Shown in pieces: positions 1,330 through 25,887 of a DNA stretch of 64,000 nt. Under the pieces are notes generated by a model that saw only the letters and a program-made list of their open reading frames with translations, was not told where the DNA came from and made no database searches. The position numbers were made by a program, and so were the translations under genes. Numbering within the stretch: the stretch's first letter is position 1; every line of letters starts with the position of its first letter. The stretch is from an uncultured bacterium (GTDB taxonomy: Bacteria > Patescibacteriota > Minisyncoccia > Phycocordibacterales > UBA9973): the NCBI GenBank assembly GCA_903838985.1, contig CAIMAO010000002.1:1844-65843 (forward strand), written 5' to 3'.

Positions 1330-1848
1330 ATGGATAAAACAGAAATACAGAATTTAATAAAGGAATTAATTGAAAAAACCACAATTTCTGTGGGTAAGGT
1401 TTCTGTCGATGAAGATAAGCCAGCCACACTTAAATCAAATGGAGATAAAACCACTTGGTTTTCAGTAGAAGTAAGTCAACCTCATTATTTTTGGGAACGT
1501 GGAGGTGAAGCTCTTTTTGCCTTAAATCACCTTGTTCGTAGGATTATAGAAAACAAACTTCACCCGATTTCTTCTGCCTTAGAAACAGAAGGAAAAAAGG
1601 AAGGTTTAGGAATCTTAATTGATATTAATGGTTTTCAAAAGAAACGTATAGAAAATATACACGCAATAGCTCACATGATGGCTGAAAGATCTAGATATTT
1701 TAAATCAAATATAGAAGTTGATCCAATGCCAGCTTTTGAACGCAGAATTGTTCATGAATTTTTATCTGATGCCACTGACCTTAAAACTGAATCACAAGGC
1801 GAAGGTCTTTCTCGTAGGGTTGTTATTAAGTATATAGGAAGTATTTAA
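1330..1848 (+). CDS. jag: Jag/KhpB-like RNA-binding protein (Jag_N, KH, R3H)
   Basis: 172 aa. C-terminal R3H-like ...RRIVHEFL...SESQGEG... motif. Conserved position after yidC. Confidence 0.75.
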   Translation: MDKTEIQNLIKELIEKTTISVGKVSVDEDKPATLKSNGDKTTWFSVEVSQPHYFWERGGEALFALNHLVRRIIENKLHPISSALETEGKKEGLGILIDINGFQKKRIENIHAIAHMMAERSRYFKSNIEVDPMPAFERRIVHEFLSDATDLKTESQGEGLSRRVVIKYIGSI

Positions 1849-1957: not shown

Positions 1958-3346
1958 CTATTTTAGTGAAAGTTCCCAAAGATAAGAATCTTTTTTGTTT
2001 AAGAAAAATAAGTAGTTTTGATTATCATCTAGACCAAGTTTTATAGCATCCACGTCTTCCCCTCCGTCTGTCGACGGGTCTGAAACAATTGTTGCGTTTC
2101 CGCTTTTTGCATCTATTTTCCAAATTACATCTGAAAAAGAAACTTCTCCTTGATACCAAGAATCAGGATAATTTCCGTTGTCTATATATTTTGGTACAGC
2201 ACAATATAACACATCGCTTGTGGTAGCCCAGACACATTTTTCTGGCAATGTTTTTACACCAGCAGAATAAGTATTTCTGGTATCTAGGCTTAAAATATTT
2301 AAAGATAAATTTTTGTCTCCATAAAGAACCATTTTCCCATCAGGGCTTGTGAGTGTAGTTAATCCCGCTATTCCTCCTAATATTTTACTAAAATCTTTTT
2401 TATTTGGATTGGTAGAATATGCGAAACCGAGAGCATAAGCAGAAGGTTTGGTGGTGAGTGTCACAACCTTATCATTAGGCCAAAGAGAAAGCCATTCTGT
2501 AAATGGTGAACTGAATATTTGAACTTTTGTGCTTGTTTGTAATGATGCTGTGACGCCTGCGACAGTGTCTCCTGTGTTAAACAAATAAAATACTTTTGAA
2601 GTGTCTGGAGAAATGCTTATATCTGTTATGTTTTCTGGCAAAAACGAACCCTTCACTTCACTTGTGCCTATTGAGTCTGCTCCCAAATATTCTTTTGGAA
2701 GAGCACCTAAAAATGTTTCTATTGTTTTATTATCTGCTTTTAAATATCGCATTATTACAGACCCTCCTTTATTACCAAAAAACGCTTCATATACTTTTGG
2801 TATTACAGTCGAAGAGAATTTTCTTTCATCTAATTTGTCTGCAAACGTTTGATAAATATTTCCTGTTGCTCTATTTACATATCTTATAGCGGGAACAAAT
2901 TCTGTTGGTGGTAAAACTGGTGCTGGTAATTTTTGTTTTTTATCTTTTGTTGTTGGTGTTTTTGTAATTGGAGTGGTTGTTGCGTCTGTTGTTGTAGGGG
3001 TGACTGGCGTAGTGTTTGGTGTGATGACTGGAACATCTTTAAATCTCTCTTTCATAAATATTCCAAAACCAGCGACTGGGAAACTAGAAACTTTTTTTAA
3101 TTTAGCAACAGATACCTCACTTTCTGTTGGTGGAATATAACCAGAAACATCTGTTGGTGTATTTGTGTCTGTTGGTGCTACTGTTTTATTTTTTCCAAAT
3201 GGTAAAAAGTTTGCAACGAAATTTATACTATCTCCTACCACACCTGTATTTGTGCTCGTTGGTTGATAAAGAGCAAAAACAGTAAAAATACCGATTATTA
3301 TTACTCCAAGGATTACTATTAATAAAATTACATTTCTTTTTGACAT
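1958..3346 (-). CDS. Hypothetical exported protein with N-terminal TM anchor and Thr/Pro-rich linker
   Basis: 462 aa ORF with an N-terminal hydrophobic helix and PTxT-rich low-complexity segments. It is the last gene of the long minus-strand cluster. Confidence 0.5.
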   Translation of the reverse strand: MSKRNVILLIVILGVIIIGIFTVFALYQPTSTNTGVVGDSINFVANFLPFGKNKTVAPTDTNTPTDVSGYIPPTESEVSVAKLKKVSSFPVAGFGIFMKERFKDVPVITPNTTPVTPTTTDATTTPITKTPTTKDKKQKLPAPVLPPTEFVPAIRYVNRATGNIYQTFADKLDERKFSSTVIPKVYEAFFGNKGGSVIMRYLKADNKTIETFLGALPKEYLGADSIGTSEVKGSFLPENITDISISPDTSKVFYLFNTGDTVAGVTASLQTSTKVQIFSSPFTEWLSLWPNDKVVTLTTKPSAYALGFAYSTNPNKKDFSKILGGIAGLTTLTSPDGKMVLYGDKNLSLNILSLDTRNTYSAGVKTLPEKCVWATTSDVLYCAVPKYIDNGNYPDSWYQGEVSFSDVIWKIDAKSGNATIVSDPSTDGGEDVDAIKLGLDDNQNYLFFLNKKDSYLWELSLK

Positions 3347-3350
3347 AAAA

Positions 3351-4700
3351 TTAAGAAGGCCATGTGACGAACGTTATTCTCTTTTTAAGATTTGGAGATA
3401 ATTCTCTAATTTTTGTAGAATAAGCAGAGTCTGTTCTCCCTTTCCCACCCTGGGTATCTATCATTAAATTGTTACCTAAATAAATCATTACATGTCCATT
3501 TTTGTCTCCATTGTCGCCAGGCTTCCATCCTATTAAGTCACCAGGATTTAGTTTTGTAAAATCAGCGGTTGATCCTGGAAAAGATTTAGCGTTTGCATTT
3601 GAAAAGATGTCAGTACTGCGATTGCCTGGTTTGGGTAATCCAGCACACACATATACTTGAGCGGCGAAAGAAGAACAATCGACATATATTTTCGAAGAGG
3701 TTGTGGTATTTCTCTTGTCTTGGCTATAGAGAGTTTTACCTACAAATGCTTTAGCTATTCCTGGAACAGCAGCTTTGCCACTGTTTCCGTTTCCATCATT
3801 TCCACTACAAGGAATATTGAAAGGACTCTTTTCGAGAGAGTTTTTACTTATTGGTACAAATGGCTCACTTGATTCACTACCCAAATCATCTATCACTATT
3901 GTTGCATCTGGTAGTTTCAGACAAACATTAAGTAAGTCTGGATTTACTGTGTTTAGTATTAAAAAGGCACCTAGCGCAATGACAAGCCCTAGTATCGCGT
4001 TTGTTATTGTCCCCTTTCCAGCTTCCTTAGAAGCCACTAGCTCGCTTGTGAGGTATTCTATTCCACCCACAGTGATCATTATCATGGCTAATACGGCTGC
4101 TATACCGAGCACTAGTTTTATTATTATTCTTAAATATACACCAAAAGCACAATTCTGAGCAGTATCAAAAGAACTTCCATCAGGATTACCATCCTTACCT
4201 AATCCTAAATCAGGCAATGGGGCAAGAGATTTGTACATTGTGTCGGTGTTTACTTTTTCTGGAGTTGGAGCTGGAGTTGGAGCTGTTTTTGTTTTTGGTA
4301 TGTTTAAATTTAAAGAATCAGCTACACCAACAGTCCCTTCTAAGTCCCAAGCAGATGCATCTATCTTTATAGAAGATGCAGAGGTTGTAAGAGTAACCGA
4401 ACATTCTTTTAAAACAAAATCACTATTTCCAGTTATTTTTGGTATTTGGCATTGGTTACCAGGAGTAAATTTTGTTAATGTTGTTTGTGACGCAGTAAAC
4501 ATGACAAATTCTCCTCCTGTTTTTGTGAAAAGAGTGGCTGTTATTTTTATTGGATCTCCAACTATTTTATTTGCTAAATCTGCCTTTATTACTAAGGGTT
4601 TTTCTTTGGTTTGAGCAACACTAAAAGAAACAAAAAAACTAAACACGAATATTGTTATAAAGGATAGAGTTATTATTTTTTTAAATATATTTGATTTCAT
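3351..4700 (-). CDS. Secreted cell-wall hydrolase with C-terminal NlpC/P60 domain and a central two-helix hydrophobic hairpin resembling TrbC/VirB2-type pilins
   Basis: Signal peptide. The hairpin is CAFGVYLRIIIKLVLGIAAVLAMIMITVGG...AILGLVIALGAFLILNTV. Papain-like Cys..His pair in DCSSFAAQVY ... GHVMIYLG, typical of NlpC/P60. Tightly coupled to the VirB4 operon. Confidence 0.6.
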   Translation of the reverse strand: MKSNIFKKIITLSFITIFVFSFFVSFSVAQTKEKPLVIKADLANKIVGDPIKITATLFTKTGGEFVMFTASQTTLTKFTPGNQCQIPKITGNSDFVLKECSVTLTTSASSIKIDASAWDLEGTVGVADSLNLNIPKTKTAPTPAPTPEKVNTDTMYKSLAPLPDLGLGKDGNPDGSSFDTAQNCAFGVYLRIIIKLVLGIAAVLAMIMITVGGIEYLTSELVASKEAGKGTITNAILGLVIALGAFLILNTVNPDLLNVCLKLPDATIVIDDLGSESSEPFVPISKNSLEKSPFNIPCSGNDGNGNSGKAAVPGIAKAFVGKTLYSQDKRNTTTSSKIYVDCSSFAAQVYVCAGLPKPGNRSTDIFSNANAKSFPGSTADFTKLNPGDLIGWKPGDNGDKNGHVMIYLGNNLMIDTQGGKGRTDSAYSTKIRELSPNLKKRITFVTWPS

Positions 4701-4705
4701 TTAAG

Positions 4706-5707
4706 TTAAAAACTAACGGTAATTTGTTTTGCCATTTCTTGGAAAAGGGTATTTATGTTATTAATATCTAAGCTTATTGTTGCATCTCCAGACTGTCCAG
4801 CTTCTGGTTTGACAGATAAAATGTTTTTAGGATTTGGGGCATCTATTTTGTTTCCATTTAAAGACCAACCAAAATCAAGATCCCCAGAATTTATGTTTTT
4901 AGGTGAGAAAAAATATGGTTCTGCGACAATAGTTTTTCCATTTGAATCTATTGAAAAGCCATCAGATAATGATGTTTCCCATTTTGTGCCTAGTGTTGGG
5001 TCGTTTTCATAAAATAATATTTTTGGGTCTATTGGTTGTAAGTTTATTTTACCAGAAGCATTAGTTCCACCAGAAATATCAGAGACCGCTACTTCAACAA
5101 CATTGTTTTTATCTAAATAACTGTTTTGAAATATAAAATAATTTTTACCCCAACCAGAAGAATCTATCTGATTATCATCATCTTTTTTCCAATCGTAAGA
5201 TAAATTAGTCACATCCACCTTACCATTCTGATTTATTATGTTTGGCATTGCTACCACTTTGTATTGTCCTTGGCTTGGAGCTAAAATCCTTCCTTTATAA
5301 AAAGGTGGGGCGTAGGTGTCATAGGCTTCCCAGAGCATATCCACATCAGCGGGTGTTATTGTGATATTTTTTGAGACTGTTTGTCCTTCTAATGTTTCTA
5401 TTGATACAGATAAAACAGTAGGAGTTCCCAAGCTACCCATTCTAAAAGAAAAAGATTTTTTACCTATTCCTTTACTTGTTTCTTGATTGTTTATCAACCA
5501 AGAGATGTTTGCCTTGTCTAAATCTGTAGAATGGCTACTTATTGTGGCACTTACATCTTGATTTGGATTGGGGTTTAGGGGTGAGATAGAAAGCACTATG
5601 TCTGTGCTACGTATTTGTGCAAAAGCAAAAGAACCCAAAAGGGCGACGGCAAGCATTAAAACTAAAATTAAATATTTCTTTCGCATACTATGTATATATT
5701 CTATCAC
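4706..5707 (-). CDS. Hypothetical secreted protein
   Basis: 333 aa with N-terminal signal peptide/TM. Overlaps the upstream VirB4 gene by 4 nt, suggesting translational coupling. Confidence 0.5.
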   Translation of the reverse strand: MIEYIHSMRKKYLILVLMLAVALLGSFAFAQIRSTDIVLSISPLNPNPNQDVSATISSHSTDLDKANISWLINNQETSKGIGKKSFSFRMGSLGTPTVLSVSIETLEGQTVSKNITITPADVDMLWEAYDTYAPPFYKGRILAPSQGQYKVVAMPNIINQNGKVDVTNLSYDWKKDDDNQIDSSGWGKNYFIFQNSYLDKNNVVEVAVSDISGGTNASGKINLQPIDPKILFYENDPTLGTKWETSLSDGFSIDSNGKTIVAEPYFFSPKNINSGDLDFGWSLNGNKIDAPNPKNILSVKPEAGQSGDATISLDINNINTLFQEMAKQITVSF

Positions 5708-7542
5708 TTTTCTTCTGCTTTTTCTAAGTCTTGTTTTGCTTTTTTGATAGACAATATTTGAGATGGGTCAGAAGTAATTATCTGGTCTTCTGTGTAAGAA
5801 GAAATGATTTTTATAGCCACGTGTTTTAATCCTGCGAAGAATATACCCTCCCCCACACCAGATTCCAAAAGTAAATACTTTTCTTCATCTGTAAGGTTGA
5901 ATGTTTTTTGTAATACATCAATGGTTGTCGGAGATTGTTTTAACAGAAGTTGTATAGAAGAGTTGGTGACGATAGGCACACCGTAGGGGGATTTCATAAA
6001 GTCTGCAGCGTCTTGGGTGATGGTTGAAAGTCCTAAATAGTATTTTCTACCTCTTTTGGCTATAGAGTACAAAAATGAGGCTGTGTCTTCGGATTTCATC
6101 ATCCACCAAGCTTCATCCACCACCAAGAGGCGTTTCTTTAGATTTTTTCTTACAGCTGTCCAGATGTAATGCATTACGATATACATAGCGACTGGTTTAA
6201 GTTCATCTTCCATGTCACGAACAGAAAAGACAACGAATTTTTTATTTATGTCTACATTTGATGGTCTATTTAAGAATGTAGACCAAGATCCTTTGGTGTA
6301 TTTAACCAATCTTTGTATGACTGAGTCACTCCCCTCCATACCACTCAAAACCATTTCAAAATCTGAAAGTAATGGTGGTTCAATGTTTGAAAAATCAGAG
6401 TCTGGTGTTATGTCTTTCATTGCATAAGTTTCTGAAATAGCACGATCAACCATTGAATCTTCTTCTGGTGTAAGTCCACCCAACATCAATCTAAATAAAC
6501 CAACTAAGTTTATTATATTTGACCTCAACACATCTTCTGTAGATTCATCTTCTCGTGGTATTGGTAAATCAAAAGGATTTATGTGGTGATCTGAAGAAAG
6601 AGAAATGTTGAAATATCTTCCACCCACAGCTTCTGCTAAATATTCATATTCCCTTTCAGGGTCTATGACAATGACGTCTACATCAAACATTAGGGATCTC
6701 AAAATTTCTAACTTTGTTGCATAACTTTTACCAGAACCAGATTTAGCGAATGTCACGGAATTGTAGTTTTCTAAAGAAAATCTGTCAAAAATAACTAGAG
6801 AAGAGTTATGTCTATTTACACCATAAAGTATTCCCATGTCTGAAGTTAAGTCAAAAGAGACGAATGGAAAGACGCTAGAAAGTGGTTCTGAATTTAATTT
6901 TTGGTGTATGTTTAATAAGTCAGTGCCAAGAGGCATAACACTTTTAAAACCTTCTTCTTGTTGGAAAAGTGCTGGTTTTATATAGATCAATCTGGATTCT
7001 AGTATTGATTTTATTTCATTCTCTATTTTGTAAAGTTCGAGTTCGTTGTCTGCATAAACAGTGATGTATATACTCACATCAAACATTTTTTCTTGTGCTT
7101 GTATTAAACTATCACGAAGACCTTCCAAATCTTGATATGCTGTGTCTAGCATTGGATCTCGCACCATCCCCCTTTTTTCACGCACACTTATTTGACTTTG
7201 AACTTCAGCAACTTTTTTCTGGAATTGTCTCAAAGCTAAAGATGTATCTATTGGATGAATAAATATCGAGACATCAAAAACTTTATCCAAATTTATTATT
7301 GGAGAAAACCAATTATCACTCAAAAATCTAGGATAAGAAATTATGAAAAAAGTACGGGCTATTTTATCACCTAGATTTATTGATTTTGATTCTATTTTTA
7401 AAGCAGAGGGAGCTATTATGTCTTGAAGTTCAAGTTTAGCAGACTCATATATTTCTTCTGGCAACACCGCTAAAACAGAAGCATTGGTTGCTTTGTTTTT
7501 TTCTAGTTTATTTTTTCCAAATAATTTATCTAATATTCCCAT
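5704..7542 (-). CDS. virB4: Type IV secretion / conjugative transfer ATPase, VirB4/TrbE/TraC family
   Basis: 612 aa. Walker A FAKSGSGKSY, Walker B LLVVDEAWWMM, and further VirB4 family motifs. Confidence 0.85.
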   Translation of the reverse strand: MGILDKLFGKNKLEKNKATNASVLAVLPEEIYESAKLELQDIIAPSALKIESKSINLGDKIARTFFIISYPRFLSDNWFSPIINLDKVFDVSIFIHPIDTSLALRQFQKKVAEVQSQISVREKRGMVRDPMLDTAYQDLEGLRDSLIQAQEKMFDVSIYITVYADNELELYKIENEIKSILESRLIYIKPALFQQEEGFKSVMPLGTDLLNIHQKLNSEPLSSVFPFVSFDLTSDMGILYGVNRHNSSLVIFDRFSLENYNSVTFAKSGSGKSYATKLEILRSLMFDVDVIVIDPEREYEYLAEAVGGRYFNISLSSDHHINPFDLPIPREDESTEDVLRSNIINLVGLFRLMLGGLTPEEDSMVDRAISETYAMKDITPDSDFSNIEPPLLSDFEMVLSGMEGSDSVIQRLVKYTKGSWSTFLNRPSNVDINKKFVVFSVRDMEDELKPVAMYIVMHYIWTAVRKNLKKRLLVVDEAWWMMKSEDTASFLYSIAKRGRKYYLGLSTITQDAADFMKSPYGVPIVTNSSIQLLLKQSPTTIDVLQKTFNLTDEEKYLLLESGVGEGIFFAGLKHVAIKIISSYTEDQIITSDPSQILSIKKAKQDLEKAEEK

Positions 7543-7570
7543 AATTTTGCTTTATAAACTTTATAACTTT

Positions 7571-8212
7571 TTACTTTTCCAACTCTATCTTACCCTCCAA
7601 TTCTCCTGGATTGAAAACTTTATAAAATACTTCCACAACTTCTTCTGTTCCAAGCTGAACTGATTTTATTCCACAACGTGAAAGTCCTTGTTGTATGACT
7701 CCTACCCTCTGGTCTAATTGTGATCTTTTTTCCTCGAAATCTAACTGATTTTTTAATTCTTCTTCCTTTTTGTTTCTTTTTGAAAATAAACCGTCAAATA
7801 TACCTGCTTTTGGTTTTAAGTTCACGTGTGTGTAAGGCACAACAACAAAAAAGTTTTTTGTCATTATACTGACAGATTCGGTGAAATTTTTTATAAATTC
7901 TATATATTCTTTTGTTTGTAATTTAAGTAATGGTTCACTTTGCACCTTCATTCTGTTTTCTAATAATAAAAGATAATGTCTTATGTCGAGTCTTCTAGAT
8001 TGAACGGAAATTTGTACAGAAAAATCAAGGGTATTTAAGAAATTTTGGAATTGTAGTATTGTGGCTCTTTGTTCATCTTCTGATTTTAGAGATAGGTTGA
8101 CTGAATTGGCAAGAACAATAGCTCGAAGGTCTCCACCTTTCAAGACGACAATACCATCACGGACTTCCTTGATTGGTACAAACTCTTGAGTTGCTTTTGC
8201 GTTTAATGCCAT
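7571..8212 (-). CDS. T4SS-associated soluble protein, possibly a split N-terminal domain of VirB4
   Basis: 213 aa with no TM helix. Begins ...VPIKEVRDGIVVLKGGDLRAIVLANSVNLSLKSEDEQ..., which resembles the N-terminal region of Gram-positive VirB4/TraE proteins. Lies directly upstream of the ATPase gene. Confidence 0.45.
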   Translation of the reverse strand: MALNAKATQEFVPIKEVRDGIVVLKGGDLRAIVLANSVNLSLKSEDEQRATILQFQNFLNTLDFSVQISVQSRRLDIRHYLLLLENRMKVQSEPLLKLQTKEYIEFIKNFTESVSIMTKNFFVVVPYTHVNLKPKAGIFDGLFSKRNKKEEELKNQLDFEEKRSQLDQRVGVIQQGLSRCGIKSVQLGTEEVVEVFYKVFNPGELEGKIELEK

Positions 8213-8216
8213 AATT

Positions 8217-8651
8217 TTAATTATTTTCTTCTTTTTTCATATCAAGCACATCCAGACTCCAAGCCAAATCTCGAAGTTTGCTTCCACTAAGCCTTGAACC
8301 ATTTTGCAAGGTTTCCTGTTTTAACACTGCTGCTGCTTTCATTTCTTCTTGTTCTTGTTTGTTTACTTTATTTAGATGTCTTTTCCAAATATAGAGTCTG
8401 TCGTGTGATGCGAATTTTATTCCAGCCTCAATCATATTTATAAAAGGTTTTCCGTTTGGGTGATAAAAAGTAAGTGCTCCAGAAAGACCAGCAATTAATA
8501 AAATAGGAATAGCCCCTATCCATATTCCTAATAATTTAAACAATGTATAGCATAGTCCTGCCCCGCCAGCCAAATAAGCAAACTCCTTAAAAGTAAAAGG
8601 GCCGAAAATTTTATCCTCTATTTCCAAAAATTGTGGTACTTTGAATTGCAT
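8217..8651 (-). CDS. PrgI/VirB3-like small membrane protein
   Basis: 144 aa. The N-terminal ...FLEIEDKIFGPFTFKEFAYLAGGAGL... is followed by two TM helices, matching PrgI-family (VirB3 analog) architecture. Lies immediately upstream of the VirB4-like genes. Confidence 0.55.
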   Translation of the reverse strand: MQFKVPQFLEIEDKIFGPFTFKEFAYLAGGAGLCYTLFKLLGIWIGAIPILLIAGLSGALTFYHPNGKPFINMIEAGIKFASHDRLYIWKRHLNKVNKQEQEEMKAAAVLKQETLQNGSRLSGSKLRDLAWSLDVLDMKKEENN

Positions 8652-8742
8652 AAATTAGTTTCTAGGCGCTCGTGACTAGATTCTAGTTAATTATAATATA
8701 TATTTACTCTAGAAACTAGAAACTAAAACTATTTTGAACTTC

Positions 8743-9384
8743 TTATTCTATAGGCATTCTGTATGGATCTACTTTTGGTAGTTTTGTTTTAGCGTCTTCT
8801 GTACTTTTTGTCATATTTCCAAGTGAATGATCTGTTTCTTTTGTTGTCGCCTGGAAAGAACCACCAAGTTTTTGGGACAAAATAGAAGGTGTTTCTTTAT
8901 TCATTGTTTGTATTGGTGTTGGGTTTTCTATTTTATTTAACAAGTTTTCCCTATTTTCAATAATTTCTCTATCTTTTACAGGAGCTTCTATTTTACTTTC
9001 ATCTTTTGGTTTTCTATTTTCAATAATTTTTACAAGCTCTTCACGAATTCTTTTGAAAACTTTTTCATTCATATCATTTACCAATTCATCAATTTTATTT
9101 TTAGGCATACCCAATCTTTTTTCTAACTCTTTTGGATATTCTTCTGGATTAATAAGCCCACAAAGCAGTAGTTCTGTTTCTGTTTCTAAGTCTTCTAGTT
9201 GCTCGTAGCTATATCCTTTTTCTGTTCGCATTCCCAAGATAGTTGATTTCCAATCAACAGCATCAATAGCCCTCCTACTATCTTCTGGAAGTTCCGCTTT
9301 AGCCTTTTCTATTTTTATTTGTAATAAATCTACGGTTGTATTCATAATATTTTTATATAACAAACTTATTTTTAATGTCTTCAA
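8743..9384 (-). CDS. Hypothetical acidic protein (paralog of 9353..9853)
   Basis: 213 aa ORF. The probable start is the internal Met MNTTVD... near 9345. Shares a motif pattern with the neighbouring ORF: AI..W..I ... ETxLLLxGL ... EYxK. Confidence 0.45.
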   Translation of the reverse strand: MKTLKISLLYKNIMNTTVDLLQIKIEKAKAELPEDSRRAIDAVDWKSTILGMRTEKGYSYEQLEDLETETELLLCGLINPEEYPKELEKRLGMPKNKIDELVNDMNEKVFKRIREELVKIIENRKPKDESKIEAPVKDREIIENRENLLNKIENPTPIQTMNKETPSILSQKLGGSFQATTKETDHSLGNMTKSTEDAKTKLPKVDPYRMPIE

Positions 9385-9853
9385 TTTTAGAATTATTATT
9401 TATAGTATTATCTTCTGTGTTCACAACATCGTCGTTAGAATCGTAACTTCTTTCAAGAAAAGCAGAATAATCGCCACCAGAGAGTATAAAATCAACTGTT
9501 TGTTCATAACCTATTTTTTTGTTTATTAGCTTATCTTCTGCTTGTTTTGATAATTGGTAATATATGGGATTAAAAATTTTCTGAGCAACAATTTTAGCAA
9601 TTTCTTCTGCTTCATTTTTGCCTACACCTACATTGTTTTCAATGTTTAAAACATAGGAATCTCCTTCTGTTAATCCTAATAACATTAGGGCTGTTTCTAG
9701 TTGGAAATCATTTAATTCATTATCAGTAAGTAAGTATTTTTTGCTAATTTCTTCTGTAATTTGTTCCCAACGAGAAGAATTAATTGCATCTTGTGATTCT
9801 TTTGGTAGATTTTTTATTTCCTCATTAAATTTTTGTTTTAATTTTTCAGTCAT
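9353..9853 (-). CDS. Hypothetical acidic protein (paralog of 8743..9384)
   Basis: 166 aa. Shows the same pattern: AINSSRWEQI...LETALMLLGLTEGDSY...KIFNPI. Confidence 0.45.
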   Translation of the reverse strand: MTEKLKQKFNEEIKNLPKESQDAINSSRWEQITEEISKKYLLTDNELNDFQLETALMLLGLTEGDSYVLNIENNVGVGKNEAEEIAKIVAQKIFNPIYYQLSKQAEDKLINKKIGYEQTVDFILSGGDYSAFLERSYDSNDDVVNTEDNTINNNSKIEDIKNKFVI

Positions 9854-9858
9854 ATTTT

Positions 9859-12525: not shown

Positions 12526-12550
12526 TTTCTACTTTACAACTCGCCTCGGA

Positions 12551-14140
12551 CTATTTTTTGAAATAATATTCATACGCAGAAGCATTTTTTAAATCTGCAC
12601 TCGTATCTCTGACATCTATTATTTTACCATTAAAATATTCATACACGGTTAATTTATTTCCTGAAAGTTGAAGTTGATAGGCTGCGACATCTGGCTTGCT
12701 GACACGTATTTCTTTTCCTTTGCTATTAACATAACCGAAATCTCTTGCGAAAGTATCTGCTAAACCCCAAGCAAAATTTTGTAAATTATCTCCTTCTCCA
12801 TATCCATACAATTTTGCAAAGGCTGTGTCTGCTGTTATTTGTCTTACGAAAACTGTTTCAATACCTTCGTGATAATGCACTACTGCATCTCCCGGTGGTG
12901 TGATGGTTTGTCCTAGTTTTAATGGCGTAGTGTCTATTATGCCTGTGCTTGTGTTTGTGTTTCCATTGTTGTTATTTCCATAATTATTTCCATTGAAATT
13001 GTTCTGATTATTTATATTATTTTGATTGTCACTATTACCATTGTTATTATTCTGATTATTATTCTCATTGTTTCCATTGTTGTTGTCTCCGGTGGTATCA
13101 CTACTTCCATCATTTCCACCTCCTAAAGTTTCGTTATAGTTTGTTGTGAAATCTAAAGCAGAACCAGTGAAAATAGTTTCATTACTTTTTCCTAAATTAT
13201 TTTTTGCTACAGCCCTGAATTGATATATTGTCTTTGGATTTAAACCAGATAAATTAAAACTAATATTGCCATAAAGATTAGAAAATTTTCCTATGTCATA
13301 AGTTGTTTTACCCACTTCTTTCCAAACGGTTGGTGCGGTAGTTGTGTTTTCAGCTTCTTTGTATTCAAAAGAGGTTGTGACAGTTTTAGTGGAGCAATAA
13401 TTACCAGTTATTTTAGCAGAATCGGAAGTTATCATGGTTGATCCACTTGTGTTGACTGTGGTGGTGTAGCAATCAGTATGAAATTTCTTGATTATACTGG
13501 TTCCCCCATATGCTATGCCTTCCTTGTTTGATATTATTGCACAATAATAGTAAGTAGTGTTTGGAGAAAGTCCAGTTATTTTTTGAGAAAAAGTTTGTGA
13601 TAATGTGCTAGAGTTTATTTTTGTTAATTTTAGATCTCCTGTTGAACCCATATTTGTGCCATAAATATCATTACAATATATTGGAGAAATATCTGCTTTT
13701 GAGTATCTGAAATATGCAGTGAGTGGAGATAATGTTGAACTCGAAGTTTTGTAGCCCCCTACACCATTTAATGTTGCACTAGTTTCACCCAAGTTTGTAG
13801 CCTCATTTGTTTGAACAAAAAAATTTTCTTTTGCTGAGGTGGCAGTGTCTTTTATATAGCAAGATTTGAGCACATAAGGTGCTGGATCTCCGCCAAACAT
13901 GTTGTTGTTGCAGTCTATGCCACCGGCTATATTGTATTGATACTTGAAGACATTGTTAGCACCATAAGCGACATCTTTTGATCCAGCAAAACTGCAATGA
14001 ACACCTTCAGTTGAGCAAAGAGTGTAGCCATTTGGTAAATTTGGACTAGTTGAATAATATGACCAAGAAATAAGTGGTATCAAGAATAAAGCTGTTATTA
14101 ATATTTTTATTGTATTCTTTTGCATTTTAATAAACTCCAA
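12551..14140 (-). CDS. Hypothetical secreted protein with Asn-rich low-complexity linker
   Basis: 529 aa, signal peptide, long N/G/Q-rich tract. Overlaps the upstream gene by 14 nt. Confidence 0.5.
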   Translation of the reverse strand: MEFIKMQKNTIKILITALFLIPLISWSYYSTSPNLPNGYTLCSTEGVHCSFAGSKDVAYGANNVFKYQYNIAGGIDCNNNMFGGDPAPYVLKSCYIKDTATSAKENFFVQTNEATNLGETSATLNGVGGYKTSSSTLSPLTAYFRYSKADISPIYCNDIYGTNMGSTGDLKLTKINSSTLSQTFSQKITGLSPNTTYYYCAIISNKEGIAYGGTSIIKKFHTDCYTTTVNTSGSTMITSDSAKITGNYCSTKTVTTSFEYKEAENTTTAPTVWKEVGKTTYDIGKFSNLYGNISFNLSGLNPKTIYQFRAVAKNNLGKSNETIFTGSALDFTTNYNETLGGGNDGSSDTTGDNNNGNNENNNQNNNNGNSDNQNNINNQNNFNGNNYGNNNNGNTNTSTGIIDTTPLKLGQTITPPGDAVVHYHEGIETVFVRQITADTAFAKLYGYGEGDNLQNFAWGLADTFARDFGYVNSKGKEIRVSKPDVAAYQLQLSGNKLTVYEYFNGKIIDVRDTSADLKNASAYEYYFKK

Positions 14141-17024
14141 TCATTGATTCAAACGGTCCACCACGTGCGTCACCATCTGTTTTTCTACTTCCTACTGATA
14201 TATATCTATACTTTGAATCAGATTTTACACCAAATATATCTTCTGCAAATTTTAATCTCTCTTGTCCACGAACTTCTATGTAGTCAAGACCACTTACATG
14301 TCCAGCAGAGAAAAATACAAAACTTAAGAAACCAGGGCCAAATACATCATATTCATTTTTAGGTGTTGTGTTTTTATCCCCACTGTTCCATGGATCTGGC
14401 AGCATGGAACCCTCTTTTGTATATTTTTCATTGTTGTAATCATAAAGTATAGAAAAAGGATAAGTCATTCTTTTGACAGAGTTTATGTTGTAGTTTTTCC
14501 AATCTCTTCCTGACACAGCCGTACCAGCTGAGGGGAAATTTTTTATGTTGTCTGGATTTTGTAAAAATGCTTCACAGCCAGATGGACCTTTTAATAGTGT
14601 TTTATATACATAATCTTTTTTATCTATGATTTGTTTCGTCAAACTATCAACACTGGCTATGTCATCTCCATTCACCATTTCAGCAGAAATATTTCCAAAT
14701 TTATTTATTTGTGTTTTTAGTGCAGTTTCATAATCATCTCCACCATTTGAATATGTTTCATTTAAATCATCAACAGATTTTTTTATGTCGCTTAACGTAT
14801 TTATTACATTTTTTAATGAAGAAATTTTATTTTGATTGTCTACTATCATTTGAGCATAACCAGGTAACTGGTTGTAATCTGTGATAGCTTCAGTAGTGAC
14901 TGACGGAAGAATACCTGGGCCTGAAAAATATGTCTTATTGATTATTTCTGCATATCTACTTAGAATTGTGTTCATGCCATTAACAAATCCACCATAACTT
15001 TCTGTATTTATAGCTGTTGAGTCATTTCCATTTTCATAGTCTGGCATCACTCCAGTAAACACATAAACTGCTGTTGCATAATATCCTCTAAGTTTTTCAG
15101 AATCATCAGGGCTATTAATAAGACTTGCAATATAACCTACTGCAACTCCGACAACTGCTCCGATTATTGTACCAACAACAGGAACAGCTGAACCTACAGC
15201 TGCACCTGTTGCCGCCGCTGTCCCTACTCCAAGCAAAGCAGCAACAGGCGCAGCAAGAGTCAATCCTGCAATCGCACCAGCAGCCATTGGCGCGATAGAT
15301 GTTATGGTGCCTAAGATAGCATCCATGTTTTTGTCTTTTAAGTCTTCTTTTGTTTCTGGGACAACTTTATTTAATGCTGCACTTAATACTTTTTGAGAAT
15401 CACCTTCCCATCCTGGATGTGGTCCTGGGATACAGTAATCTAGTTGATATATTGCGGGGATAAGTCCGTAGGCGTTAGATATTCCTGTTTTATCATCAAG
15501 TTTATAATTATTGCCGTCCGTTGTAGACATTAATTCTTTATTTTGTTGTGTAAGTTTGTCAGAATATGTTCTTTGTTCATCTATTAAAGCTTGGGTAAGG
15601 TCTGTACGAATATTAAAATCTGGATTTACAGAAAGCCAAGATGTTGTGAGTTGGGCTGGGGAGAAGTCTTGCTCTGTTTGGGTTCTGATTGTGTTGTTGT
15701 TTAAGGTGTCTGAGCTAGAGCCAGTTAAATCATCAGTGTTAATTTCAGAGAACCCCTTTTCCATAAGGCTGGAAGAGAATTGAGCCAGAAGAGCATTTGT
15801 GACTGCTTCTATTGCGTCATTTAGATCTTGGGCGCTTAACAGAGAATCTTTTGTGGTTGTCATTGTGCTTGTAGCTGCATCAGCTATCATTGATCCAGGT
15901 GTGACGTATTTCCATTGTTTGCAAAGTCTATATATATACATATATGGAAGATATGCTTCTCCAGTTTTTTCATTATAAGTAGCTTCACTACCTCCAGTAT
16001 TAGGATGGTTGCTTCTTTCTGTTAATGCTTTTTGGTTTTCTTCTTTTGTGACACCTTGTGGATCAACACAACGTTGATCTCCAAGAAAACCATTTGCTTG
16101 TGATAATGCATCATGATATTTGTCTGCGGTTGATTGGACTGTTCCTTGTAGTCTCTTTTGTAGTTCATTATCTGCCATTAATTTAAAACCGAGAGGATTG
16201 TTTGCTGGGCTCTGTGTCATAGCTGTCCAAGCGTCCCACCCACCTTGGCTGAAATCTTGTTGGAAGGTTGATGCAGAATATTCAGGATTAGTATCCTGTA
16301 TTAGTTTATCTAGAGAATAGGTAGCATTATCTTGGAATTTACTATTGAAAGCATTAGCTGTATTTTTTAGCCATTCTTTACCGAAAGGAGAACCAGAAGC
16401 TGTTATTTCTGTGCCAAACTGTAGCACTTCATTTTTAGCTATATCACCAAAGAATTTTGTAGGGTCTTGGATAAAAGCAGGGCTACCATTAAAGCCACTC
16501 TTTATCCAATTTACAGTGCTTACAGTAATTTTTTGTAAAAGCATTTTTGTCACGATACGTCCTATGGCTGCGGTGCAGGTAGAGTTGTCTTTGAGAGCAG
16601 AAATATCTTTTTTTGTATCTTGTGCTAACTTTTTTGTATCTCTTATGTTATCTGCCGCCGCTGTTCCTTCTATGTTAACATTGACAGAATCACTTAGACT
16701 AGTGTTGTTTTTTATAATGTCTTCGACTTTAGGGGTAATTGAATCTATTAAGTATTCAGTTCCTGCTGCTAACCCCCCTGATAGAATCATAGTTTTTGCA
16801 TTTCCCCCTTGTATTGCGTTACCAAGTGCTGCTACTGTTCCAGTGAATAATAATTTTGTGGTTAAGCTCGTGTCTCTACATTGAGGTAAAGAAGAAATAG
16901 AAAATGAATGACCCGAGATACTTTGAGCTTCTGCCTTTTTGGGTATAAAACCAAGAGGCATAGAAATAGTACTGACAATCAATATGAATGAAATTATAGA
17001 ATTTTTTAAATATTTCTTTTGCAT
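14127..17024 (-). CDS. Large secreted/membrane protein (965 aa) with a Gly/Ala-rich TM cluster
   Basis: Signal peptide. A hydrophobic Gly-zipper segment ...IAGLTLAAPVAALLGVGTAAATGAAVGSAVPVVGTIIGAVVGVAVGYIASL... Member of the T4SS-like operon. Confidence 0.5.
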   Translation of the reverse strand: MQKKYLKNSIISFILIVSTISMPLGFIPKKAEAQSISGHSFSISSLPQCRDTSLTTKLLFTGTVAALGNAIQGGNAKTMILSGGLAAGTEYLIDSITPKVEDIIKNNTSLSDSVNVNIEGTAAADNIRDTKKLAQDTKKDISALKDNSTCTAAIGRIVTKMLLQKITVSTVNWIKSGFNGSPAFIQDPTKFFGDIAKNEVLQFGTEITASGSPFGKEWLKNTANAFNSKFQDNATYSLDKLIQDTNPEYSASTFQQDFSQGGWDAWTAMTQSPANNPLGFKLMADNELQKRLQGTVQSTADKYHDALSQANGFLGDQRCVDPQGVTKEENQKALTERSNHPNTGGSEATYNEKTGEAYLPYMYIYRLCKQWKYVTPGSMIADAATSTMTTTKDSLLSAQDLNDAIEAVTNALLAQFSSSLMEKGFSEINTDDLTGSSSDTLNNNTIRTQTEQDFSPAQLTTSWLSVNPDFNIRTDLTQALIDEQRTYSDKLTQQNKELMSTTDGNNYKLDDKTGISNAYGLIPAIYQLDYCIPGPHPGWEGDSQKVLSAALNKVVPETKEDLKDKNMDAILGTITSIAPMAAGAIAGLTLAAPVAALLGVGTAAATGAAVGSAVPVVGTIIGAVVGVAVGYIASLINSPDDSEKLRGYYATAVYVFTGVMPDYENGNDSTAINTESYGGFVNGMNTILSRYAEIINKTYFSGPGILPSVTTEAITDYNQLPGYAQMIVDNQNKISSLKNVINTLSDIKKSVDDLNETYSNGGDDYETALKTQINKFGNISAEMVNGDDIASVDSLTKQIIDKKDYVYKTLLKGPSGCEAFLQNPDNIKNFPSAGTAVSGRDWKNYNINSVKRMTYPFSILYDYNNEKYTKEGSMLPDPWNSGDKNTTPKNEYDVFGPGFLSFVFFSAGHVSGLDYIEVRGQERLKFAEDIFGVKSDSKYRYISVGSRKTDGDARGGPFESMIGVY

Positions 17025-17069
17025 TTTACTTTAAGAACTTTAAAACTTTTTTACTCTTGTATTATATCA

Positions 17070-17999
17070 CTATTTTGTTAAAGCTGTCTCTAAATCTCCC
17101 ACTGCTGCTACTAAGTCATTACTATATTTTTGATATTGAGAAATACCAGAGAGTCCTACGACAGGATCATCCATAACTTTTTCCATATTTGAAACGCTTA
17201 TGCCTGTGTTGTTGGAACTATTTGCTATCCGTAAATGATAATCTGCCAATCCTTCTGGGACTTTAACATCTGTAATTATTTTTTTAGCAAAATCTTGATA
17301 TGCATTCGCTATAGCTATTAATTTAGCTGAAGAATTAGGATTATTTGCAGAATCTAAAGTAATTTTGTTACTGATGATATCCAACTCGTCTCCTATCCCA
17401 GCTGTTTGATAAGTTTTGAATATTTTTTTTATAGTATTGTAATATGCTTGTCTAGAAACAGCAGTGTCATTGTTGTCTAACTTTATATCTGAAGCTGTGT
17501 AACGATCAAGTAAGTTTGGGTTTGCTACTTTTTCACCCAAGGCACTTGAAAAACTATTTATGGCATTTTTGTCAACTTGTCCAGAAGATTTCATTGCACT
17601 GTAACTGACGAAGAACTCTCTAGCAAACTTGTCAGTTTCTGTCAGATTTTTATCATTTGCTGTTACACTTTCGTCTATATTTAATTCTTTCTTTCTGTTT
17701 TCTATATAGGTGGCATCAGGTGTATTGTTGAAAGTTATTTTTTTGTTTTTGTCTGTTCCCCAGAGGTCTTCTTCCCAATCAGGTATGCCGTCTCCATCAG
17801 AATCTTTTTGAATTAAGTCTGTGACAGATTGATTTGCTACTTTTAATGGAACAAGATTTTTTTTATTTGTTGTACTAAATATTTCTCCCCCTGAAGACAT
17901 AAAAAATATGACAAATATAATTACTCCCAAAACAACAAGAACGCTTAAGATTATTAAGAATTTTTTTGTTGGTAAATATTTTGAATATTTTTCTTTCAT
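17070..17999 (-). CDS. Membrane-anchored protein with thrombospondin-type-3-like Ca-binding motif
   Basis: 309 aa, N-terminal TM helix. Contains the motif DSDGDGIPDWEEDLWGTD. Confidence 0.45.
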   Translation of the reverse strand: MKEKYSKYLPTKKFLIILSVLVVLGVIIFVIFFMSSGGEIFSTTNKKNLVPLKVANQSVTDLIQKDSDGDGIPDWEEDLWGTDKNKKITFNNTPDATYIENRKKELNIDESVTANDKNLTETDKFAREFFVSYSAMKSSGQVDKNAINSFSSALGEKVANPNLLDRYTASDIKLDNNDTAVSRQAYYNTIKKIFKTYQTAGIGDELDIISNKITLDSANNPNSSAKLIAIANAYQDFAKKIITDVKVPEGLADYHLRIANSSNNTGISVSNMEKVMDDPVVGLSGISQYQKYSNDLVAAVGDLETALTK

Positions 18000-18011
18000 G
18001 ATTTTATATTT

Positions 18012-18410
18012 TTATTTTGAAGTTCCAAAAAGGGTTATTGTATTTAGGGAAACAGTAGCATAAGTAGGTGGGTTCCCTGGACGAACACAGTTTATAATTG
18101 TTCTTCCGGTGTATTTACCTAAAATTGATTTACCTGTTGTTGGAGTAGTTCTTGTTTTTGATACTACCGCCCAAGGTATAAAATAACTAGTTGGTGTTCC
18201 GGTAGGAGAACCCAAAGGGATTATTGTGATAGATTTACCTAAAACAGTACATTTGTATCCAGCCCATTCTTTTATTTCTATTTCCATTGCTTTGTCACTA
18301 ATTATTTTTCCACCAAAAAAGCCTCCGATAGAAGAAGCAGCAAAAACTATTCTAGTACCAACAAATACCAAAAAAATAATTAGCAGAATAAAAATTGTGC
18401 CTTTTTTCAC
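18012..18410 (-). CDS. Small exported protein, first gene of the cluster (possible pilin-like subunit)
   Basis: 132 aa with an N-terminal hydrophobic segment. Confidence 0.4.
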   Translation of the reverse strand: MKKGTIFILLIIFLVFVGTRIVFAASSIGGFFGGKIISDKAMEIEIKEWAGYKCTVLGKSITIIPLGSPTGTPTSYFIPWAVVSKTRTTPTTGKSILGKYTGRTIINCVRPGNPPTYATVSLNTITLFGTSK

Positions 18411-19318: not shown

Positions 19319-19322
19319 TTTT

Positions 19323-24375: not shown

Positions 24376-24391
24376 AAAATTTTATAATTAT

Positions 24392-24700: not shown

Positions 24701-24767
24701 GATTTTTATGTTTAAAAGTTAATTTTTAATAATTTTATTATGCTACTTTTATAAAAAATACGCAATT

Positions 24768-25832: not shown

Positions 25833-25887
25833 ATTAATCTTTTGTTATTATAAATTATACAATATTTGATAATCTTAAACAAAGCTT

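Follow-up and report, generated by a model that had tools for sequence, protein, structure and literature searches.

A chromosomal type IV secretion system (T4SS) of the Patescibacteria has been described in publications from 2023 to 2025. It is derived from the MPF_FATA type, lacks a relaxase, and is located near dnaA, ksgA, and rnpA in Paceibacteria (PMC12102498). The homologous system of Saccharibacteria, which lacks a coupling protein and a relaxase, has been shown, in a Saccharibacterium only, to be essential for epibiotic growth (PMC10633639; PMC12857230). A total of 5,713 VirD4-like coupling protein (T4CP) homologs were reported from 2,918 Patescibacteria genomes in a 2025 survey, most of them far from virB4 (PMC12102498). 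The locus examined here, which lies in a 64-kb stretch of DNA (hereafter, the window), is a real representative of this already described class. The source is a Ca. Nomurabacteria/Paceibacteria bacterium, and the closest counterparts of the locus are found in Ca. Nomurabacteria/Paceibacterota MAGs, in agreement with the preliminary description of the source as a CPR-type organism.

With the systems described by Quinonero-Coronel et al. (2025, PMC12102498) and for S. epibionticum (SEML1_0006-0019; Wang et al., 2023, PMC10633639) the locus shares a VirB4 of the monoderm MPF_FATA type and, near virB4, a neighboring TrsD homolog, PrgI/VirB3, VirB6, and a VirB2-like pilin (PMC12102498, PMC10633639). 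Also shared are a VirB1-type (CD419/NlpC-P60) hydrolase with virB4, as reported specifically in Paceibacteria (PMC12102498), the absence of a relaxase and of a nearby T4CP, an undetectable VirB8, and a site beside dnaA, dnaN, rnpA, and ksgA. S. epibionticum, however, carries an array of six essential pilins whereas a single pilin gene is present here. Further, the available portions of the published descriptions do not mention the pilin-hydrolase fusion found here, and the profiles given in those portions do not cover four large, Paceibacteria-specific proteins (g11, g12, g01, and g03).

The thirteen packed minus-strand genes reported initially were found exactly as described, between 1958 and 18410, with gaps of 1 to 91 nt, and the block does run on into rsmA and pcrA, which follow directly on the same strand. 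That some genes partly overlap is true only of the longest-ORF TTG/GTG starts (g04/g03, g08/g07, and g11/g10); with the later ATG starts of the public gene calls on the identical contig (g03, 326 aa; g07, 200 aa; g10, 524 aa) there are zero overlaps. Genes rnpA and the divergent dnaA-dnaN lie immediately left of the window, and the cluster is ~2.4 kb from dnaA. The features are as follows.

183-428, plus strand, yidD (flank)
580-1317, plus strand, yidC (flank)
1330-1848, plus strand, jag/R3H (flank)
1958..3346, minus strand, g01, membrane anchor, Thr/Pro-rich linker, and putative beta-propeller, 462 aa
3351..4700, minus strand, g02, pilin and NlpC/P60 fusion, 449 aa
4706..5686, minus strand, g03, secreted, Ig-like beta-sandwich domains, 326 aa (333 aa from GTG 5707)
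5704..7542, minus strand, g04, VirB4 ATPase of CD1110/MPF_FATA type, 612 aa
7571..8212, minus strand, g05, TrsD/TraC-like, directly upstream of virB4, 213 aa
8217..8651, minus strand, g06, PrgI/VirB3-like membrane protein, 144 aa
8652..8742, the sole sizeable intergenic gap, 91 nt
8743..9345, minus strand, g07, cytoplasmic protein, 200 aa from ATG 9345 (213 aa from TTG 9384)
9353..9853, minus strand, g08, acidic cytoplasmic protein, 166 aa
9859..12525, minus strand, g09, extended VirB6-like polytopic channel protein, 888 aa
12551..14140, minus strand, g10, secreted, adhesin-like, 529 aa (524 aa by the public call)
14127..17024, minus strand, g11, Paceibacteria-specific, the largest protein of the cluster, 965 aa
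17070..17999, minus strand, g12, N-terminal membrane anchor, TSP3-type repeat, and helical ectodomain, 309 aa
18012..18410, minus strand, g13, small basic protein, variable accessory, 132 aa
18446-19318, minus strand, rsmA/ksgA (flank), co-directional, 35 nt upstream of g13
19323-21455, minus strand, pcrA (flank), co-directional, beyond rsmA

The motor and membrane core were largely as proposed in the preliminary description. The VirB4 assignment of g04 passes curated cut-offs (NCBIfam conju_CD1110, 378 bits, cut-off 325; Pfam P-loop_TraG, 3.5e-24) and is accompanied by a match to PDB 4ag5 (1.7e-39) and a full-length alignment with TraE of pSK41 (1e-32). Both Walker motifs, A (AKSGSGKS) and B (LLVVDE), are intact. 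The PrgI/VirB3-like protein g06 likewise scores above the Pfam gathering threshold (PrgI, 4.8e-8, 33.9 bits, threshold 27), and it is kept in 77 of 80 related loci at a median identity of 53%. For g09, the VirB6/TrbL-like label found no match in Pfam, NCBIfam, or a PDB sequence search but is favored by structure, motif, and weak profile matches (model pLDDT of 74, a moderate confidence); a signal/TM segment and an fn3-like ectodomain precede a core of ~6 TM helices (aa ~238-560), which is followed by a long coiled-coil tail in the cytoplasm. A VirB6-fold channel protein is thus predicted, confirmed only by fold. Upstream of virB4, g05 matches the NCBIfam profiles VirB4_plasma (1.7e-10, profile positions 102-281 of 894), TrsD (2.1e-5), and CD1110 (3.7e-5, positions 2-113) and carries a precomputed Pfam assignment to PF26593 (TraC-like); the same profiles resume in g04 (VirB4_plasma, 284-892; CD1110, 182-733). 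Since g05 is a TrsD/TraC-like piece upstream of virB4, VirB4 is split over two collinear ORFs, g05 and g04, the former being its detached N-terminal domain. The identity of g05 (7571-8212) was absent from the initial component list. Cytoplasmic proteins g07 and g08 are paralogs (BLASTP 1e-10, 28% identity over 93 aa) whose counterparts are joined as one 331-aa protein in one related locus (L003); no TM segment was found in g08.

What is less ordinary in this locus is that the sole pilin-like subunit is fused to a wall-cutting enzyme whose type varies between close relatives. An NlpC/P60 hydrolase bearing a pilin-like hairpin had been noticed from the outset, and both domains of g02 exceed their Pfam cut-offs within one protein (T4SS_pilin, 27.4 bits against 26.6; NlpC/P60, 37.7 bits against 23). 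A signal peptide and an Ig-like N-domain are followed by a VirB2-like two-helix pilin hairpin (aa ~190-250) and the endopeptidase, with catalytic Cys342 and His403 present. Stand-alone pilins of 150-212 aa share 50-75% identity with the hairpin, and g02 was the single ORF matched by the pilin HMM over the window. Among orthologs from close relatives the hairpin is kept and the C-terminal head is NlpC/P60, VanY/M15, YkuD, Amidase_2/5, or SLT; the tails of 55 orthologs fall into at least 17 unrelated clusters, at least 10 of which come from species with a VirB4 86-91% identical to that of the window. This exchange suggests a wall-directed, host-adapted tool. To the best of our knowledge, known VirB1 orthologs are stable within one T4SS family. 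The VirB1-type hydrolases PrgK, TraG of pIP501, CwlT, and CD419 share with g02 an endopeptidase of the NlpC/P60/CHAP class encoded two genes downstream of virB4, a membrane tether, and a wall-facing placement. PrgK of pCF10 and TraG of pSK41/pGO1 have a plain TM anchor, however, whereas the tether of g02 is a VirB2/TrbC-like pilin hairpin and its enzyme is exchanged for M15/VanY, YkuD, amidase, or SLT. The bulk of such fusions (~190 aa before and ~200 aa after the hairpin) might prevent helical pilus packing.

Six proteins predicted to be secreted or anchored in the membrane (g01, g03, g10, g11, g12, and g13) evolve much faster than the core, and the very large ones, said at first to have no recognizable family, still largely lack one after profile and structure searches. 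The g01 domain (TM segment at aa 6-24) is probably a TolB/PD40-like beta-propeller, as its profile retrieved four TolB entries from the PDB (best E of 0.01) and its orthologs include matches to PD40 (3 of 35). A peptidoglycan-binding domain (PG_binding_1, 5.4e-11) is present in 4 of 35 orthologs. Weak Ig-like matches were obtained for g03 (PKD_3 and Hoc, with BiPBP_C/Ig_3 in orthologs), which has a signal/TM segment at aa 12-30. The g10 protein combines repeats resembling fn3 with a linker rich in Asn and a C-terminal domain, and its fn3 and Pur_ac_phosph_N matches are sub-threshold; this variable gene occurs in 11 of 80 related loci, the closest relatives only. In g11, a signal/TM segment and a large ectodomain are accompanied by a TM hairpin of the glycine-zipper type (aa ~570-632), and profile and structure searches recognized no fold in this protein. 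The position of g12 (TM segment at aa 14-32) is kept in 38 related loci; a TSP3_bac repeat of the calcium-binding type is weak in g12 and present in 8 of 34 orthologs (best 5.7e-9), and no PDB sequence match was found. Sequence comparisons gave no similarity of g01 to PrgL, of g03 to pSK41 TraF or pCF10 PrgL, or of g12 to PrgL or TrsH. Homologs of g13, which has a single hydrophobic N-terminal signal/TM segment (aa 6-24), were counted in 2 of 80 related loci, a count limited by the 10-kb flank, and in two loci (L003 and L019) rsmA abuts the g12 homolog with nothing between. A Pfam match of g13 to 53-BP1_Tudor lies over the TM segment and was judged spurious.

The Gram-positive systems chosen for comparison were pCF10 Prg/Pcf (PrgH-I-J-K-L), pSK41/pGO1 Tra/Trs (TraC-TrsD-TraE-TraF-TraG), and the Clostridioides CTn CD1110-type, whose profile cut-off the VirB4 of the window exceeds. 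The cluster shares the order VirB6 - VirB3 - VirB4 - X - hydrolase with pCF10 (PrgH-I-J-K) and the order VirB3 - TrsD - VirB4 - X - hydrolase with pSK41. These likenesses, the membership of VirB4 in a family typical of Firmicutes conjugative transposons, and a tyrosine recombinase at 48788-49705 could be taken to mean that the cluster is an ordinary ICE, or the decaying remnant of one, that by chance resides in the chromosome. Gram-positive plasmids and ICEs, however, are mobile and encode a relaxase, a VirD4-type T4CP, VirB8-like PrgL/TraM, and adhesins (PrgB), whereas the Patescibacteria locus is chromosomally fixed without any DNA-processing parts. As noted early on, no relaxase, VirD4 (T4CP), or VirB11 domain was present among the ~45 ORFs scanned, which included every ORF of at least 300 aa in the 64-kb window; nor was a VirB8-like scaffold detected in the cluster and window by profile searches or PrgL/TrsH comparison. 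The recombinase is 30 kb off, among housekeeping genes, the GC content of the cluster is that of its surroundings, and every ORF is intact with catalytic motifs present. Moreover, across related species (80 loci, homologs counted within a 10-kb flank, collinearity evaluated over 79), 74 of 79 keep a collinear arrangement of the genes, which is bordered by jag-yidC-yidD-rnpA/dnaA at one end and by rsmA-pcrA at the opposite end; because the same order recurs in these loci, the arrangement is not due to chance. Median identity over the 80 loci is 85% for VirB4, 68% for TrsD (g05), 62% for YidC, and 49% for RsmA, compared to 29-43% for the surface proteins. The motor is thus under strong purifying selection, and a VirB4 more conserved than YidC argues against a passing element. 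The ICE reading is already largely refuted, and its probability is very low.

The locus is best explained, with a probability of roughly 0.7, as an MPF_FATA-derived chromosomal T4SS near dnaA that serves macromolecule transfer between epibiont and host rather than conjugation. A role in uptake or host interaction, as suggested in the preliminary description, is the view held in the literature (PMC12102498, PMC10633639, PMC12857230). The interface tubes and host RNA uptake of a cultivated Microgenomatia strain and the makeup shared with the Ced/Ted importers, both described below, likewise favor this explanation. VirB4 hexamers would dock on PrgI and VirB6 and supply the energy to build a conduit through the wall, or a short pilus, around the g02 hairpin, with the Ig-like domain and hydrolase head of g02, both extracellular ends, facing outward. 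Where the cells make contact, the head would cleave peptidoglycan; the part that crosses the wall and binds the host would consist of the Ig-like, fn3, beta-propeller, and TSP3 proteins, and the machine would carry macromolecules between epibiont and host cell with no DNA conjugation. As to transport direction, we lean slightly toward import or feeding over effector export.

Helicobacter ComB is a chromosomal, relaxase-free, T4SS-derived importer repurposed from conjugation, with a minimal VirB4-like, VirB6-like, and VirB2-like set. A possible, if unlikely, function of the locus is nucleic acid import of the ComB or Ced/Ted type, in which the VirB4-VirB6-pilin core would draw in host or environmental DNA or RNA for a cell that is probably unable to synthesize nucleotides. 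In archaea, the Ced/Ted DNA importers have the same makeup of VirB4-like ATPase, VirB6-like channel, and VirB2-like pilin, and they are likewise chromosomal, relaxase-free, and repurposed from conjugation (PMC9905601); no sequence relationship to them is detectable beyond the shared superfamily, however, they lack a wall hydrolase and large ectodomain proteins, and import is shown for them but only hypothesized here. The missing T4CP in the window, the PNPase in the same window (50811-52940), and the absence of de novo nucleotide synthesis from 93% of Patescibacteria genomes fit import, as does a cultivated Microgenomatia strain that takes up host RNA and bears T4SS-pilus-like tubes at the parasite-host interface that appear to enter the host (bioRxiv 10.64898/2026.06.21.733656), although these tubes are not directly tied to T4SS genes. 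The cluster itself, however, has no nucleic acid-binding, nuclease, or helicase component, pcrA and rsmA being ubiquitous housekeeping neighbors. In addition, deletion of comEC in S. epibionticum ended transformation with viability kept (PMC12857230), so that natural-transformation DNA uptake is not essential there and the essentiality of the T4SS does not act via ComEC.

Export of protein effectors (enzymes or toxins, the g02 hydrolase head among them) to or into the host is a doubtful explanation even though Wang et al. (PMC10633639) suggest that the system of Saccharibacteria "may instead export proteins" and the g02 head is polymorphic in the manner of toxin/effector domains. The signal peptide of g02 means that ectodomains could exit through Sec without a T4SS, neither a T4CP nor a recognizable secretion signal was identified, and no immunity-like small genes lie beside g02. 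Still, a VirD4 homolog may be encoded elsewhere in the genome, and T4CP-dependent export is conceivable because VirD4-like T4CPs in Patescibacteria are mostly far from virB4 (PMC12102498). That the locus is chiefly an attachment organelle of pilus and adhesins with no transport is improbable: it encodes a pilin-like subunit and many surface proteins of the Ig-like, fn3, and TSP3 kinds that evolve fast, but type IV pili already serve adhesion in Patescibacteria (PMC12102498, PMC12857230), attachment alone has no need of a peptidoglycan hydrolase head, and the extreme conservation of the VirB4 motor and VirB6 channel suggests an energized conduit.

Within the 91-nt gap at 8652..8742, a perfect 11-nt inverted repeat (TTAGTTTCTAG / CTAGAAACTAA) surrounds a TATAAT-like box, and TTTCTAG occurs in three copies in 64 nt compared to 21 across the whole window on both strands. 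From its sequence, the gap is a candidate internal promoter/operator ahead of prgI-virB4.

The cluster consists of 13 minus-strand open reading frames (ORFs) at 1958-18410, numbered g01 (nearest jag) to g13 (nearest rsmA), with almost no spacing between them, and ORF calling thus bears out the tight packing described in the preliminary description. The partial overlaps also described there are seen only with the longest ORFs, since each of the three apparent overlaps arises when a gene is extended to a TTG or GTG start; with the later ATG starts in the public calls for the identical contig (g03, 326 aa; g07, 200 aa; g10, 524 aa), the genes are separated by gaps of 1-91 nt. As had been noted, the block continues on the same strand into rsmA and pcrA (18446-21455), and the co-directional run reaches ~27978 beyond pcrA. 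On its downstream side, the cluster is convergent with jag, yidC, and yidD. An identical VirB4 is found on 18 public contigs, and on the longest of these yidD, at the left edge of the window, is directly adjoined by rnpA and then by divergent dnaA-dnaN, placing the end of the cluster ~2.4 kb from dnaA. The locus therefore has dnaA, dnaN, and rnpA on one side and ksgA/rsmA on the other, as in the location pattern of Paceibacteria, and its GC content (0.31-0.36) is the same as that of its surroundings.

Principal features of the cluster and its flanks (position, strand, description)
183-428, plus, yidD
3351-4700, minus, g02, signal peptide, Ig-like domain, T4SS_pilin hairpin, and NlpC/P60 domain
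5704-7542, minus, g04, VirB4 ATPase
7571-8212, minus, g05, TrsD/TraC-like protein
8217-8651, minus, g06, PrgI/VirB3 protein, two genes upstream of virB4
8743-9853, minus, g07 and g08, acidic cytoplasmic paralogues (1e-10)
9859-12525, minus, g09, 888 aa, VirB6 fold by model and profile alignment
18446-19318, minus, rsmA (ksgA), 35 nt upstream of g13
19323-21455, minus, pcrA

Together, these genes encode a VirB4, a VirB3/PrgI, a VirB6-like channel protein, and a cell-wall hydrolase, the components by which a type IV secretion system (T4SS) was recognized here. The assignment of g04 as VirB4 holds across Pfam (P-loop_TraG, 3.5e-24, plus AAA_10 and DUF87), NCBIfam (conju_CD1110, an MPF_FATA-type model that is the top curated match, 378 bits, cut-off 325), the Thermoanaerobacter VirB4 structure (PDB 4ag5, 1.7e-39), and a full-length alignment with TraE of the Gram-positive conjugative plasmid pSK41 (1e-32); both the Walker A (AKSGSGKS) and Walker B (LLVVDE) motifs are intact. 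The expected PrgI/VirB3-like protein was likewise recovered (g06; Pfam PrgI, 33.9 bits, threshold 27). The neighboring g05, left unassigned in the preliminary description, corresponds to TrsD, the N-terminal part of VirB4: it matches positions 102-281 of VirB4_plasma, a model of the single-chain VirB4 of Mycoplasma integrative and conjugative elements (ICEs) (1.7e-10), and positions 2-113 of the CD1110 model, and g04 takes over in these two models at positions 284-892 and 182-733, respectively. Because g05 and g04 cover consecutive stretches of single-chain VirB4 profiles, they form a VirB4 split into two collinear ORFs and, by the same alignments, the 'TrsD' family is the detached N-terminal domain of VirB4, a gain for the annotation of such loci. 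The assignment of g05 rests on NCBIfam models, including TrsD/TraD (2.1e-5), with a precomputed Pfam TraC-like mark on the public copy, and not on hhalign comparison of its profile with the single pSK41 TrsD sequence, which was not significant (probability 2.3%).

The 888-aa protein g09 had no match in Pfam, NCBIfam, or PDB sequences, and a PDB profile search returned coiled-coil noise only. Precomputed PF19590 marks on three of its homologues were not reproduced by a fresh scan. An AlphaFold2 model built with 61 homologues (pLDDT 74) comprises an fn3-like ectodomain, a transmembrane helical core, and a coiled-coil tail; used as a Foldseek query, it retrieved six chains from R388 complexes containing TrwI/VirB6, with probabilities of up to 0.96. 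In hhalign comparisons, the family profile of g09 aligned with pSK41 TraL (E 2e-4), TrwI (E 1.5e-3), and PrgH of pCF10 (E 0.027), and a near-invariant segment around W469-W470 was aligned in all three. On the model and these alignments, a VirB6 fold is accepted for g09; the VirB6 half of the earlier 'VirB6/TrbL-like' designation thus stands, and no claim is made to Pfam TrbL membership. A VirB6 fold that is missed by sequence profiles is a further gain for annotation and may explain why most virB4 loci detected in a 2025 survey yielded no VirB6 homologue (PMC12102498).

That survey (Quinonero-Coronel et al., 2025; PMC12102498) described a VirB4 clade that is confined to Patescibacteria and has MPF_FATA as a relative, in which TrsD is the commonest companion of virB4, PrgI, VirB6, and VirB2-like pilins are encoded nearby, relaxases are nearly always absent, and dnaA, dnaN, rnpA, and ksgA are neighbors; in Paceibacteria, virB4 is accompanied by VirB1 (CD419) homologues. 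The present locus shares the TrsD homologue, the VirB2-like pilin near virB4, and the origin-side location, and because its arrangement equals that description it belongs to an already known class. Its gene order also matches PrgH-I-J-K of pCF10 and TraC-TrsD-TraE-TraF-TraG of pSK41. The system itself is thus of low novelty, with the exchange of hydrolase heads on its pilin being moderately novel, and the value of the locus is as a clean, fully collinear Paceibacteria example. Patescibacteria T4SSs belong to a small number of machines for which an essential role in the epibiotic lifestyle has been demonstrated in this huge uncultivated radiation: growth as an epibiont requires the Saccharibacteria homologue, which lacks coupling protein and relaxase (Wang et al., 2023; PMC10633639), and a 2025 review sees their essentiality and potential pili as setting them apart from all other monoderm systems (PMC12857230).

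A scan of one genome per species identified at least 533 VirB4 relatives, the best 80 of which (75-94% identity) were taken as loci; all 80 are from Patescibacteria metagenome-assembled genomes, mostly labeled Nomurabacteria or Paceibacterota. In 74 of 79 loci, each detectable gene has the order and orientation seen in the window, and, even though flanks were limited to 10 kb, yidC or jag is seen downstream in 63 loci and both flanks in 26. Median identity is highest for the core (VirB4, 85%; TrsD, 68%; PrgI, 53%), with the VirB4 motor more conserved across species than the housekeeping flanks YidC (62%), Jag (59%), and RsmA (49%); the exported or surface proteins of the cluster have median identities of 29-43%. 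No relaxase, VirD4/TcpA coupling protein, or VirB11 was detected in the scanned ORFs, including all of at least 300 aa within the 64 kb, in agreement with the absences first noted, and the remaining large ORFs are housekeeping or cell-wall genes. A complete conjugative element, which would have made this an ordinary ICE, was looked for specifically. With the collinearity across relatives, the conserved yidC/jag and rsmA/pcrA flanks, native-like composition, no relaxase, VirD4, or VirB11 found in the window, and its only recombinase 30 kb away, an ordinary ICE is excluded and the overall interpretation proposed in the preliminary description is upheld.

The other principal observation concerns g02, in which both the NlpC/P60 hydrolase and the pilin-like hairpin previously described were found: NlpC/P60 scores 37.7 bits (threshold 23) and retains both Cys342 and His403, and T4SS_pilin is matched at its gathering threshold. 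It is the sole pilin-like ORF within 64 kb, so that pilin and VirB1-like hydrolase form one polypeptide. The hairpin is kept in positional orthologues (T4SS_pilin in 38 of 44, TrbC in 4 of 44), in which the C-terminal domain is variously NlpC/P60 (12), VanY (8), Peptidase_M15_4 (3), YkuD (3), Amidase_5 (3), SLT-family (3), or Amidase_2 (1). Similarly, tblastn over the related loci located the hairpin in 73 and the NlpC/P60 domain in just 14. All-against-all clustering resolved the g02 tails into 17 unrelated clusters, of which at least 10 are represented among species whose VirB4 is 86-91% identical to that of the window, evidence that the enzymatic head is rapidly exchanged. More widely, 12,800 relatives of g02 were retrieved at E <= 1e-3 from a library of 1.84 billion representatives; in 100 sampled top matches, the pilin domain was present in 89 and NlpC/P60 in 66, the alternative heads being amidase, VanY, YkuD, SLT, and CHAP. 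A word-indexed search with the hairpin alone gave only 8 matches because the query was too short. No mention of a pilin-hydrolase fusion was found in the searched literature on these systems. Two cysteines, Cys184 and Cys258, flank the hairpin on its extracellular side; among 100 homologues both are present in 49, one in 8, and neither in 43. This co-occurrence suggests a disulfide staple in one sub-lineage, a pattern that shared ancestry could also give. The pair is reminiscent of TrbC/VirB2 cyclization.

Features could be assigned to several of the large proteins first described as having no recognizable family. The membrane-anchored g01, which has an added PG_binding_1 domain in some orthologues, contains a probable TolB/PD40-like propeller as judged from its sequence; Ig-like domains make up g03; g10, found in closest relatives only, has fn3 repeats; and g12 carries a bacterial TSP3 repeat. 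That description still fits g11 (965 aa), the C-terminal half of which was modeled confidently with no fold match and whose family has just 223 members, all unnamed. In Pfam and NCBIfam, nothing above threshold was obtained for g01, g03, or g07-g13, apart from a 53-BP1_Tudor match in g13, a small variable gene (18012-18410, a 132-aa secreted protein). At 24.2 bits against 22, this match covers a hydrophobic N-terminal transmembrane segment and was discounted as an almost certain false positive. Profiles of g01, g03, and g12 gave hhalign probabilities below 1% in every comparison with pSK41 TraF and TrsH and pCF10 PrgL. None of the 13 proteins matched a VirB8-like scaffold (PrgL/TraM/TcpC) in Pfam or NCBIfam; VirB8 was rarely detected across the phylum in the 2025 survey (PMC12102498). 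In one related locus (L003), the g07 and g08 homologues are fused into a single two-repeat protein of 331 aa (L003 7361-8356). A 119-aa ORF lies between this g07 homologue and prgI (L003 8403-8780), and its product looks like a putative four-helix-bundle protein. Four further loci (L009, L017, L030, and L032) have the same C-terminal coding sequence in the slot, followed by species-specific short direct repeats (e.g., GCCTAG x4, AAGCTA x5).

Given the observed parts list, predicted topology, and conservation pattern, the split VirB4 would dock on PrgI and VirB6 and power a wall-spanning conduit, with the fast-evolving ectodomain proteins forming its outer, host-facing part. The g02 hairpin is predicted to have VirB2 topology with both ends outside, such that the Ig-like domain and hydrolase would be presented to the wall. 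Conjugation is an unlikely function for such a machine, and transport in either direction is a candidate. Import would fit the minimal composition shared with the T4SS-derived importers Ced and Ted (VirB4, VirB6, and a VirB2-like protein, with no relaxase; compared by composition only), the lack of a coupling protein in the window, and the dependence of the phylum on host nucleotides; furthermore, host RNA enters the cells of a Microgenomatia strain in cultivation, whose tubes resemble T4SS pili and apparently penetrate the host (bioRxiv 10.64898/2026.06.21.733656). Export is the view of Wang et al. (PMC10633639) and would fit the polymorphic enzyme head of g02.

The key distinction is whether that head acts on the wall of the producer, in the role of VirB1, or on that of the host. 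Host adaptation is, we infer, the simpler account of such fast head swapping between closely related species. One possible reading, to which a probability of roughly one in four is given, is that the sole VirB2-like pilin carries a polymorphic wall-cutting head matched to the host wall, much like a drill bit. The conserved hairpin would then be part of the T4SS conduit or docked to it, displaying a C-terminal peptidoglycan-acting enzyme outside, and the class of head (NlpC/P60, VanY/M15, YkuD, Amidase_2/5, or SLT) would be swapped between close species according to host wall chemistry; in about half of homologues, the cysteine pair would staple the extracellular ends of the hairpin, mimicking the head-to-tail cyclization of TrbC/VirB2. 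If this holds, the T4SS would be a feeding tube that breaches the host wall, with head type predicting host range. Were head type to track host wall chemistry, it would provide a handle on host range that can be read from sequence and would speak for a machine acting on the envelope of the host.

Further cell-wall enzymes are encoded near the T4SS. A block at 21481-29422 includes, on the strand of pcrA, two acidic proteins and a 696-aa Amidase_2 protein, as well as a divergent LysM and Peptidase_M23 gene (28352-29422). The block begins upstream of pcrA with g16 (21481-24375), a same-strand gene for a 964-aa protein with a central transmembrane hairpin; a metagenome scan with g16, which tested a link of this block to the T4SS, retrieved no relatives. 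Farther along, a MoxR-type AAA+ ATPase (32865-33938) forms a pair with the product of 31468-32841, which has a sub-threshold VWA_2 match (22.8 bits against 27).

The ~26-kb minus-strand run (1958-27978) is transcribed towards dnaA and would be head-on to replication, provided that oriC lies beside dnaA. Against this picture, cumulative GC skew declines to ~40 kb and turns at a tRNA cluster (39.9-41.1 kb), the point at which genes also switch strand. Promoter and terminator counts were not above those in shuffled sequence, so the scan was uninformative on operon structure. The sole sizeable intergenic gap in the cluster (8652-8742, ahead of prgI) contains a TATAAT-like box enclosed by the arms of a perfect 11-nt inverted repeat (TTAGTTTCTAG / CTAGAAACTAA), and TTTCTAG occurs three times within 64 nt in this region; judged by these motifs, the gap is a candidate site for an operator or an internal promoter.
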